Source: Escherichia coli
Lineage (GTDB): Bacteria > Pseudomonadota > Gammaproteobacteria > Enterobacterales > Enterobacteriaceae
DNA length: 64,000 nucleotides
Assembly (NCBI RefSeq): GCF_003334385.1
Contig: NZ_QOWN01000006.1
Strand: one strand, 5' to 3'
Below, one piece after another: positions 61,638 to 62,074 of this stretch. Each line of letters starts with the position of its first letter. Positions within the stretch are counted from its first letter, which is position 1. The position numbers were made by a program, and so were the translations under genes. Below the pieces are notes generated by a model that did not search any database, was not told the DNA's origin, and saw only the letters and a program-made list of their open reading frames with translations.

Positions 61638-62074
61638 ATATTTGGCCCCAAATAATTTTGGGTGAAAACCAATCAATGAACTACTTATTAATAGGTAAGT
61701 ACCAGAAATTATTCAAGTAGAGTATTTTCAGGCGATTGCCTATTAATAAATATATTATTGATAGATAACTACCTTCTGTGATTTGCCCGCAAATCACAGA
61801 AGATGAAAAGCTATCAATACGTGATATTTTCACGGAAATGCCAATTAATACTCCAGAATATCTCCTGACCCTATACTCTGAAGCCTGTAAGAACTACATC
61901 AGATACCAGATAGATATAAGTCTGAAATTATTTGGTTTCCAATAACTCAGGTGAAAACCTATCAATTCATCTGTTTTCAATAGACAGCCACCTTCCGTGA
62001 TTCACATGTTAATCATGGAAGGTGAAAAGCTATCAATAATCGACATTTCCACGGAATTACCACTTAATACATCC
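61638..62074. repeat. Four-copy array of a composite element: palindrome followed by GTGAAAA(C/G)C(T/A)ATCAAT
   Basis: Motif copies at about 61661, 61801, 61950 and 62021; palindromes tatttgg-cc-ccaaata, tctgtgatttgc-cc-gcaaatcacaga, ttatttgg...ccaataa, ccttccgtgatt...aatcatggaagg; copies 2 and 4 share a further 35-bp extension. Confidence 0.7.

Follow-up and report, generated by a model that had tools for sequence, protein, structure and literature searches.

Here we describe an array of five structured DNA units in a 64,000-nt stretch of Escherichia coli contig NZ_QOWN01000006.1 (hereafter the window). It lies in the non-coding spacer between a P4-type integrase gene (int) and a gene related to MpsA/MOB_M-type relaxases, in a genomic island at a tRNA-Asn gene. 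The array is real and recurs in related islands, and it is undescribed, in that no annotation, Rfam family or paper was found for it. Its units keep a palindrome whose sequence is replaced, next to a conserved and directional tail, and the array probably acts as folded single-stranded DNA. We propose that it consists of orientation-specific cis-acting DNA elements in the backbone (P4-type int, MOB_M-type relaxase gene, EFASI region) of tRNA-Asn integrative mobilizable islands and, more tentatively, that the units may be comparable to single-strand origins (sso) or single-strand initiation (ssi) signals. Whatever its role, it forms a conserved, unannotated and structured part of the non-coding backbone of MOB_M-type islands.

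The starting point was a 16-mer, GTGAAAANCNATCAAT, which an initial annotation made from the letters alone had reported in four direct copies, each preceded by a palindrome. The four copies stand: three are exact (61662, 61951 and 62022) and one carries a single mismatch (ATG..., at 61803), all on the + strand, where 0.03 matches are expected in shuffled sequence and 0 of 100 shuffles reach four; no further match occurs anywhere in the 64-kb window. A covariance model (R1) trained on 33 related units, however, resolves five units of 70-71 nt, head to tail, abutting and all on the + strand, of which the degenerate one at 61681-61750 had been overlooked although it folds well (z = -4.6). They form two blocks, with three units at 61610-61821 and two at 61900-62040, separated by a 78-nt gap inside which the extension following unit 3 lies, so that the array begins at 61610 and not, as first delimited, at 61638. 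The units reach 41-75 bits on the + strand and some 30 bits less on the - strand, and the model finds no other credible unit in the window or in loci totalling about 290 kb. The next-best score in the 64 kb, 20.8 bits, belongs to the sole other match in the window (20413-20457, - strand, E about 0.01, GC 0.49), which is probably an unrelated hairpin or terminator.

Each unit follows the same plan, in which a variable inner palindrome stands between a left flank TTRATAGGAAAg and a conserved tail GAAAAnCTATCAAT. When aligned, each is a single long imperfect dyad around one centre, in the order outer box ATTRATAGG, unpaired AAAG, a 12-18-nt inner arm, a 0-6-nt loop, the complementary arm, unpaired GAAA(A) and outer box CCTATCAAT; given this plan, the 16-mer runs from the final bases of the inner arm across the unpaired purines and the right outer box. 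The long palindromes described before the second and fourth 16-mers (units 3 and 5) were confirmed, with 14-bp perfect arms in the one and 18-bp arms with two mismatches in the other (z = -8.2 and -4.5, respectively). Those before the first and third 16-mers (TATTTGG/CCAAATA in unit 1 and TTATTTGG/CCAATAA in unit 4) are present, but are thermodynamically weak in the window strain, with z near zero, whereas their orthologues elsewhere are 15-18-bp perfect hairpins (13-17-bp stems for orthologues of unit 4). The extension said to be common to the second and fourth copies also held up, as 61819-61851 and 62038-62070 align without gaps, together with 18 orthologues, and its TTTTCA is able to pair with TGAAAA of the preceding 16-mer. 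In more divergent strains the basic module is single-copy and comprises a short unit, a long unit and the extension, the two 16-mers being spaced by 71 nt. The layout in the window is a tandem duplication of this short-long-extension module plus an extra short unit, in agreement with the duplicated two-unit module suggested initially. Array-like motifs without unit flanks also occur as strays, a palindrome GTGATTAC-agg-GGTAATCAC resembling a long-form arm and an extension-like GATATTTTCAC, at 62668-62691 and 62762-62775. The coordinates of all features are collected in Table 1.

The palindromes are conserved as structure rather than as sequence. Inner arms are unrelated in sequence between units and between orthologues (e.g., GTACAAAAAATTTTG, CACCCAAAATTATTCAC, CCTTCCGTGATTAACA, ATTTTGATTTGCA and GCCCGTTGATATTTGA), yet the two arms of a unit are still complementary: among the 652 pairs of 47 distinct inner hairpins, in a count that scored G·T and A·C alike, 628 (96%) are Watson-Crick, 4 are G·T, 3 are A·C and 17 are other mismatches. 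In the alignment of the 33 units, pairing of the inner helix amounts to 86.5%, with changes on both sides at 15 of 18 pairs and a covariation score of 0.41 versus 0.16 in shuffles (0 of 500 reach 0.41), and it drops to 33-43% in slid registers; restricting the analysis to the 18 long-form units leaves the outcome unchanged. Mean pairwise identity is 84% in the right flank and tail, 64% in the left flank and 55% in the inner palindrome, the last value being near the AT-rich background, and the spacer diverges faster than its flanking genes (75% identity versus 87% for int between the window and locus L005). The outer boxes, of the TTGATAG / CTATCAA type, are 72-77% paired; covariation support for this outer stem was looked for in the unit alignments and not found. 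The helix between 16-mer and extension is 93% paired but invariant, and hence gives no covariation evidence. Loops measure 0-6 nt and are often palindromic through the centre. Because wobble pairs are nearly absent, no strand bias is seen and complementarity runs through the centre, the pairing seems to matter at the level of DNA rather than RNA. In locus L003, whose int is 98% identical to that of the window, unit 1 has acquired 25-bp perfect arms, the left arm now complementing the right arm and its flank.

The region was described as non-coding from the outset, and the orthologues bear this out. Small open reading frames cross the units on both strands, and their stops in aligned orthologues fall at 20, 26, 38 and 55 codons (+ strand) or 16, 28, 43 and 50 codons (- strand); a small protein or type I toxin was rejected given these varying stop positions. 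RefSeq calls a 99-aa hypothetical protein on the - strand over hairpin units in O145 strains (L002 7130-7429, RM12367-C1). This is probably a false gene, its frame not being kept in other carriers, and the array should not be annotated as a gene, whatever its role.

Among 5,426 complete E. coli genomes, 413 (about 8%) carry the array, at one locus per genome (the 2-4 match places per record are attributed to self-matches of the internal repeat) and always between the Asn-type integrase and the relaxase-like gene. It sits at different tRNA-Asn copies and beside different cargo, which in the E. coli carrier islands comprises type VI secretion and Rhs toxin genes. The motif is thus conserved in homologous islands. 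When one genome of each species was scanned with proteins as anchors, the relaxase-like gene proved to be accompanied by the array in E. whittamii and E. albertii, and the array also occurs in a Salmonella record. The same gene (63-75% amino-acid identity) stands without the array in Serratia, Klebsiella indica, Cedecea, Pseudocitrobacter, Salmonella arizonae, Erwinia and one further enterobacterium; R1 detects no unit in any of these seven loci, and a tRNA-Phe integrase adjoins the gene in all five whose flank was checked. The co-occurrence with the recombinase-like gene, which the initial annotation had put forward for checking, is one-sided: the array always lies between the Asn-type int and this gene, but close homologues of the gene reside in tRNA-Phe islands of six other genera that are devoid of it, as judged from the five loci in which int and the tRNA were seen. 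The tRNA-Phe spacer, as read in two islands, holds only a bidirectional terminator shared with the Asn type, one TTGCGCCAG and a conserved core described below; it is only about 200 bp long in several islands, and elsewhere the same spacer holds unrelated insertions.

Metagenomes scanned with the integrase terminator as anchor added 35 contigs, giving, together with the reference loci, 31 distinct spacer variants. All 31 carry units, in a single orientation throughout, with a number (1-5) and a position that vary: in the E. coli type they come after the integrase terminator, 2-3 tandem units start about 27 nt past the relaxase stop codon in Salmonella-like types, and some variants have units at both ends of the spacer. 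One Salmonella India record (L017, NZ_CP022016.1; 473 kb, typed as a non-mobilizable plasmid) contains the tRNA-Asn/int/relaxase module with four short-form units and a second gene with a phage-integrase N-terminal domain about 1 kb before int; this record may represent a chromid or a wrongly assigned piece of the chromosome.

The window is chromosomal DNA, and gene annotation for the island in this strain was taken from a RefSeq record (strain 210221272) that is 100% identical over the spacer 61520-62120. The island lies at the tRNA-Asn gene 60019-60094 (ARAGORN), downstream of cbl and nac. Between int and the convergent relaxase-like gene is a 1.4-kb stretch without annotated gene, a 3'-3' spacer in which the array is 3' of both, beginning 28 nt after the terminator hairpin that is kept in Asn- and Phe-type islands alike. 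The relaxase-like gene had been taken for that of a recombinase, a reading that needs refinement: the intact 294-aa orthologue matches Pfam Integrase_1 (PF12835, 1e-58) and Phage_int_SAM_2 (PF12834, 7e-40), a combination that marks MpsA/MOB_M relaxases and not an ordinary recombinase. PF12835 is the signature of MpsA-like atypical relaxases of the tyrosine-recombinase family (PMC10484663), and the family, named MOB_M in a 2026 preprint, is reported there to be the commonest relaxase family of enterobacterial chromosomes, nearly always beside an integrase (10.64898/2026.01.13.699239). In the window strain both int and the relaxase-like gene are pseudogenes and no attachment site (att) repeat or repeat of the tRNA 3' end occurs within the next 49 kb; the island is an immobilised remnant, with Rhs/immunity genes, IS1, IS5 and a phosphotransferase-system sugar cluster. 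Strain E7-1N7 has an intact island of 12.95 kb, bounded by 21-bp direct repeats of the tRNA 3' end and carrying type VI secretion cargo. Judged by its gene content and att repeats, the host element is an integrative mobilizable island. Repeats of the GGTGGTCAG type lie between tRNA-Asn and the start of int (60204-60226) and a second time in the E7-1N7 island, directly at the inner edge of its far att repeat CCAGTCAGAGGAGCCAAATTC (L063, reverse complement, about 12980-13077), and are likely integrase arm-type sites.

Table 1. Array units and neighbouring features. Positions refer to the window unless a locus is named; bits and E are those of model R1 for the units, and z is that of the DNA fold.
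Feature	Position	Strand	Description
Unit 1, short form	61610..61680	+	left flank TATCAATCGGAAAA; weak inner palindrome TATTTGG-CC-CCAAATA; tail GTGAAAACCAATCAAT at 61662-61677, 16-mer exact; 69 bits, E = 1e-16 (- strand 33 bits); z about 0
Unit 2, degenerate short form	61681..61750	+	outer stem TTATTAATAGGTAA / TTGCCTATTAATAA; 16-mer remnant GCGATTGCCTATTAAT at 61733-61748; 41 bits, E = 1.5e-8; fold -10.3 kcal/mol, z = -4.6
Unit 3, long form	61751..61821	+	outer arms TTGATAG / CTATCAA; inner palindrome CTTCTGTGATTTGC-CC-GCAAATCACAGAAG at 61773-61802 (14-bp perfect arms; inverted repeat I3 with 31-nt arms); tail ATGAAAAGCTATCAAT at 61803-61818; 75 bits, E = 1.7e-18; fold -16.9 kcal/mol, z = -8.2
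Extension after unit 3	61819..61851	+	ACGTGATATTTTCACGGAAATGCCAATTAATAC; gap-free alignment with 62038-62070 and 18 orthologues
Unit 4, short form	61900..61969	+	decayed inner palindrome TTATTTGG-TTT-CCAATAA; tail GTGAAAACCTATCAAT at 61951-61966; 45.7 bits, E = 7e-10; z = -0.2
Unit 5, long form	61970..62040	+	inner palindrome CACCTTCCGTGATTCACA / TGTTAATCATGGAAGGTG at 61989-62024, no loop (18-bp arms, 2 mismatches; inverted repeat I8); tail GTGAAAAGCTATCAAT at 62022-62037; 60 bits, E = 4e-14; z = -4.5
Extension after unit 5	62038..62070	+	AATCGACATTTCCACGGAATTACCACTTAATAC; direct repeat family D1; from alignment
P4-type tyrosine integrase pseudogene (int)	60256..61518	+	internal stop; RefSeq, and NCBIfam/PHROGs matches of the intact orthologue; adjoins tRNA-Asn
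Shared bidirectional terminator hairpin	61549..61582		AAAAGCAGATCC...GGATCTGCTTTT; perfect 12-bp inverted repeat I14, just past int stop
CTGCRCCAG repeats	62126..62357 (62126, 62182, 62217, 62349; inverted 62310); extra 62793-62801	+	motif distinct from the hairpin array; surrounds core 62232-62322
MpsA/MOB_M-type relaxase-like gene, frameshifted	62890..63773	-	RefSeq "integrase domain-containing protein"; related to tyrosine recombinases; convergent with int
Rfam EFASI motif	63814-63940	-	41 nt upstream of the relaxase-like gene; 59 bits
Immunity-RNA/STAXI regions	L005 10463-10647; L017 7126-7252, 8140-8327; L011, L015, L016 about 4140-4345		

The reading we favour, although it is no more than tentative, is that the units may be sso- or ssi-like single-strand origins or priming sites for the transferred strand of the island. 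It is based on the combination of structure-only conservation of the stem, a conserved tail, strict orientation and redundancy, which is typical of signals read by proteins that act on folded single-stranded DNA. A single-stranded stage is expected because the island is, by gene content, conjugatively mobilizable. In the proposed mechanism, a 71-nt unit in single-stranded form would fold on itself, such that a stem of any sequence would present the purine-rich tail GAAAAnCTATCAAT at its 3' base, and a priming enzyme or RNA polymerase would recognise hairpin and tail together and start synthesis of the complementary strand, either on the transferred strand or on the strand displaced if the excised circle replicates from the origin of transfer (oriT). 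Here we infer the single-stranded form as the relevant one, the identity of the transferred strand and the priming function. If the EFASI side is the leading region, as might be expected because its backbone genes share the strand of the relaxase gene in the loci checked, the + strand would be the one transferred and transfer would be almost complete by the time the array enters; in rolling-circle plasmids, sso lie near the end of the transferred strand. In further agreement with single-strand origins, intrastrand pairing is conserved as structure (z of -4.5 to -8.2 in three of the five units; covariation in the 33 units), and the units are non-coding, have one orientation and belong to an element with a MOB_M-type gene and att repeats, for which a single-stranded stage may be assumed. 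Sites that are redundant and tolerant of position would also fit the copy number of 1-5 and the varying position of the units. In integrative elements, the use of such hairpin clusters that is documented best is the single-strand origin: the sso1 of ICEBs1 is likewise intergenic, immediately downstream of the relaxase gene, composed of three stem-loops, orientation-specific and functionally redundant (PMC4595007). The 2-3 units of Salmonella-like variants, about 27 nt past the relaxase stop codon, have a comparable position.

Several observations weigh against a single-strand origin. Comparison with 72,556 plasmids and 50,697 phages returned only noise, with no similarity to known sso or ssi, plasmid or phage sequences, and the stems contain no convincing -35/-10 pair, promoter-like sites not being enriched (4 versus 4.8 expected). 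The tRNA-Phe islands have the same relaxase gene, core and terminator and lack the array, which is thus dispensable for the basic mobilization machinery. In addition, the short-form hairpins are weak in the window strain, and the loop-less perfect palindromes as well as the over-perfection in L003 resemble template-switch mutation, which is able to keep palindromes perfect without selection. Finally, we know of no MOB_M system with an established transfer direction or transferred strand. A bolder form of the same idea, which we regard as quite improbable, holds that the units would represent a new class of single-stranded DNA signal, in which the stem may be any self-complementary sequence with fast turnover through template switching, the fixed 14-16-nt tail is read by a protein and the transferred strand of enterobacterial MOB_M-type islands is primed or processed. 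If this were true, the array would be the first single-strand origin to be described in a Gram-negative integrative mobilizable element and a natural case of recognition of any hairpin plus a fixed tail. Any role as a single-strand origin or processing site would offer a handle on how MOB_M-type islands establish in new hosts.

The first alternative, which seems to us somewhat unlikely, is an array of protein-binding sites in duplex DNA, with the tail GAAAAnCTATCAAT as a site every 70-71 bp and the AT-rich palindromes as spacers or as cruciforms that aid wrapping or bending. A Ner/SfsB-like regulator, a 153-aa protein, the MOB_M-like protein, Int and IHF would be candidate binders, and the idea is close to the operator- or iteron-like sites of the initial annotation. 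What survives of the latter is the tail, which is the best-conserved element (84%), directional and a plausible protein recognition site, in an array of fixed orientation between two DNA-processing genes. The palindromes, on the other hand, were excluded as operators or iterons: their half-sites differ completely between copies while remaining self-complementary, which a dimeric protein would not tolerate, and the abutting 70-71-bp spacing is not that of short, helically phased sites. Duplex binding likewise gives no account of why 30-36 bp stay self-complementary beside each site while the sequence turns over. Within the tail stands TATCAA, which in the IHF consensus WATCAANNNNTTR is the half that is conserved best; however, only this WATCAA half matches, the TTR half being missing in every copy read. 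Furthermore, the motif is absent from the EFASI/oriT side and from both att-proximal arms, where the GGTGGTCAG-type repeats stand instead, so that the array is also unlikely to represent Int arm-type sites, and sites of this kind are missing from Phe-type islands, although the proteins there are the same.

It is also unlikely, in our view, that the array is a neutral or selfish satellite, that is, a functionless series of tandem quasi-palindromes that slippage and duplication enlarged in a 3'-3' spacer tolerant of such growth, and that intrastrand template switching keeps perfect. Such an origin would explain why copy number and position differ among close relatives, why the layout in the window looks like plain tandem duplication, and why Phe-type relatives lack the array while the same spacer elsewhere has unrelated insertions. 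The one-step perfection event in L003, the near absence of wobble intermediates and the persistence of palindromes although int and the relaxase gene are pseudogenes and attR is gone would fit as well. However, the flanks are 84% identical across paralogues and genera while the stems were replaced; concerted evolution of entire units would have made the stems uniform as well, and neutral drift would have worn down the flanks. At least one unit is present in all 31 spacer variants, always in one orientation, and one locus per genome is not the pattern of a dispersed mobile repeat. If the array were a satellite after all, it would be a clean natural record of quasi-palindrome correction.

A role at the RNA level is very unlikely. 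The hairpins would lie in the 3' untranslated region (UTR) of the relaxase mRNA (- strand, running to the terminator 61549-61582) or in read-through from int, and act as weak terminators, as insulators separating the convergent genes or as stabilisers against exonucleases. On the - strand each hairpin has GUUUUC before it and CUUUCC... after it, unit 3 is terminator-like on that strand, the Salmonella-like units come right after the relaxase stop, and Phe-type islands have only the shared terminator. The stems are nevertheless AT-rich with poor U-tracts, and only unit 3 passes even a lenient terminator scan (- strand), the tails being CTTTCC or GAAAAC, for which reason intrinsic terminators were rejected. 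Complementarity that runs through the loop and 4 G·U-type versus 3 A·C-type pairs in 652, i.e., no wobble tolerance or strand bias, also argue against a selected RNA fold, which we consider unlikely for the units, and the E. coli array sits beside the far terminator, near neither coding end. A curated RNA family was rejected likewise, as an Rfam scan of 59500-64000 gave only tRNA-Asn, EFASI and spurious microRNA hairpins, the units having no other match even at E = 1. Lastly, sites in folded DNA at which Int or the MOB_M-like protein would recombine or process the strand, similar to attC or to secondary relaxase sites, are highly improbable: despite conserved outer boxes, an unpaired purine-rich internal loop, a variable terminal hairpin and two flanking genes of the tyrosine-recombinase fold, the units abut without cassettes, their outer boxes (ATTRATAGG / CCTATCAAT) are 72% paired without covariation and do not conform to the attC consensus RYYYAAC/GTTRRRY, known MOB_M oriTs lie upstream and not downstream of the relaxase gene, and Phe-type islands lack the units.

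Compared with known systems, the array would seem to work most like sso or ssi signals and to look most like a row of attC-type folded sites. With ICEBs1 sso1 and the rolling-circle ssoA, ssoT and ssoU it shares a non-coding, orientation-specific set of multiple stem-loops beside a relaxase gene, redundancy, dispensability and, presumably, an element with a single-stranded intermediate; it differs from these in having no sequence similarity, conserved loop motif or promoter-like boxes, and tandem 71-nt near-perfect palindromes with hypervariable stems are not described for sso. The G4-type and phiX174 n'-type signals and Frpo of F are one-strand hairpin clusters that serve to prime the incoming strand or to transcribe it early. 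The array resembles these enterobacterial ssi signals as a one-strand hairpin cluster on conjugative or mobilizable DNA; they occur, however, in leading regions and have defined imperfect stems, whereas the array is on the side of the relaxase gene opposite to EFASI/STAXI, with no -35/-10 pair and no conserved CTG start triplet. Integron attC sites, too, keep folded structure over sequence, combine conserved outer boxes with an unpaired spacer at the centre and a terminal structure that varies, and adjoin a tyrosine recombinase gene, but the array has no IntI, cassettes or R''/R' consensus and its units abut.

Other repeat families are more distant. Repetitive extragenic palindromes (REP/BIME), ERIC and miniature inverted-repeat transposable elements (MITE) are similarly imperfect palindromes between convergent genes with variable copy number, yet they occupy tens to hundreds of loci in both orientations with conserved stems, as opposed to one locus, one orientation and variable stems here; dispersed repeats were rejected on the ground of one locus per genome, and the array matches neither a known MITE nor an insertion-sequence end, which had been named as a possible refutation. 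The MOB_M oriTs of SGI1, pIGRK and pCW3 also comprise inverted and direct repeat arrays beside a MOB_M gene. However, the pIGRK oriT and, by inference, that of SGI1 (S021/S022 side) precede the relaxase gene, which is the usual place of an oriT, and the SGI1 oriT is GC-rich, while the array is AT-rich and 3' of the gene. With the upstream position held by EFASI in all six loci tested, the array is unlikely to be a canonical MOB_M oriT. In sopC of F, 43-bp tandem repeats with identical dyads are read as sequence by SopB; the array similarly has direct tandem units each with a dyad, but its dyads are all different and no partition genes are nearby.

Database searches yielded little beyond the related islands. 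Distant BLAST searches with the whole spacer and single units (E <= 10) gave one related Salmonella record and otherwise noise, with no copied oriT. In viral contigs the generic flank pattern had 7 chance matches without hairpins and the long-form pattern occurred in two contigs, one of them exactly the window sequence. Inspection for P2/P4 cos sites and for CRP, Fur and DnaA boxes found no convincing match, and a full-text literature search for versions of the motif returned nothing relevant.

The spacer contains a second family of repeats, and the iteron-like direct repeats of the spacer belong to this family, CTGYRCCAG, which is separate from the hairpin units. In all variants, 5-6 direct copies with an iteron-like phasing, about 27-35 bp apart, precede a conserved core, inverted copies occur in the core (window, L027, L005 and L017), and one more copy lies beside EFASI, upstream of the relaxase-like gene (63807-63815). 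These copies may be binding sites of the MOB_M-like protein; CTGCGCCAG is frequent in E. coli coding DNA too, and only the clustering is significant. The core itself, a G+C-richer GGCCCTTT...CCGGTCAGGCGCTGTTaCCCTTA...CTGGCGCA at 62232-62322 (L011 6883-6990; L010 6900-7010), was read in islands of both types, tRNA-Asn and tRNA-Phe, as no other part of the int-relaxase spacer was; the islands are those of E. coli, Salmonella, Klebsiella indica and Serratia. The core has no Rfam match and could be a relaxase 3' UTR or a DNA site; a G-quadruplex on its - strand in E. coli was rejected as it is not conserved in Salmonella.

On the other side of the relaxase-like gene, EFASI precedes the MOB_M-type gene by about 40-100 nt at all loci tested, with 96-119 bits in six others (L005 8881-9009, L011, L010, L015, L016 and L017). 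SGI1, pIGRK and pCW3 have their oriTs at this position, and EFASI may mark the oriT of these islands or a transfer-related RNA similar to the sgm-sRNA of SGI1. Beyond the end of the window the backbone carries P4-type immunity RNAs (C4 antisense RNA, isrK and the a1/b1 target), as well as the STAXI motif in the Salmonella record, a Ner/SfsB-like helix-turn-helix gene, a 153-aa open reading frame and sometimes an ash gene. From this gene and RNA content, the island backbone reads as a hybrid of P4-like regulation and a MOB_M mobilization module.

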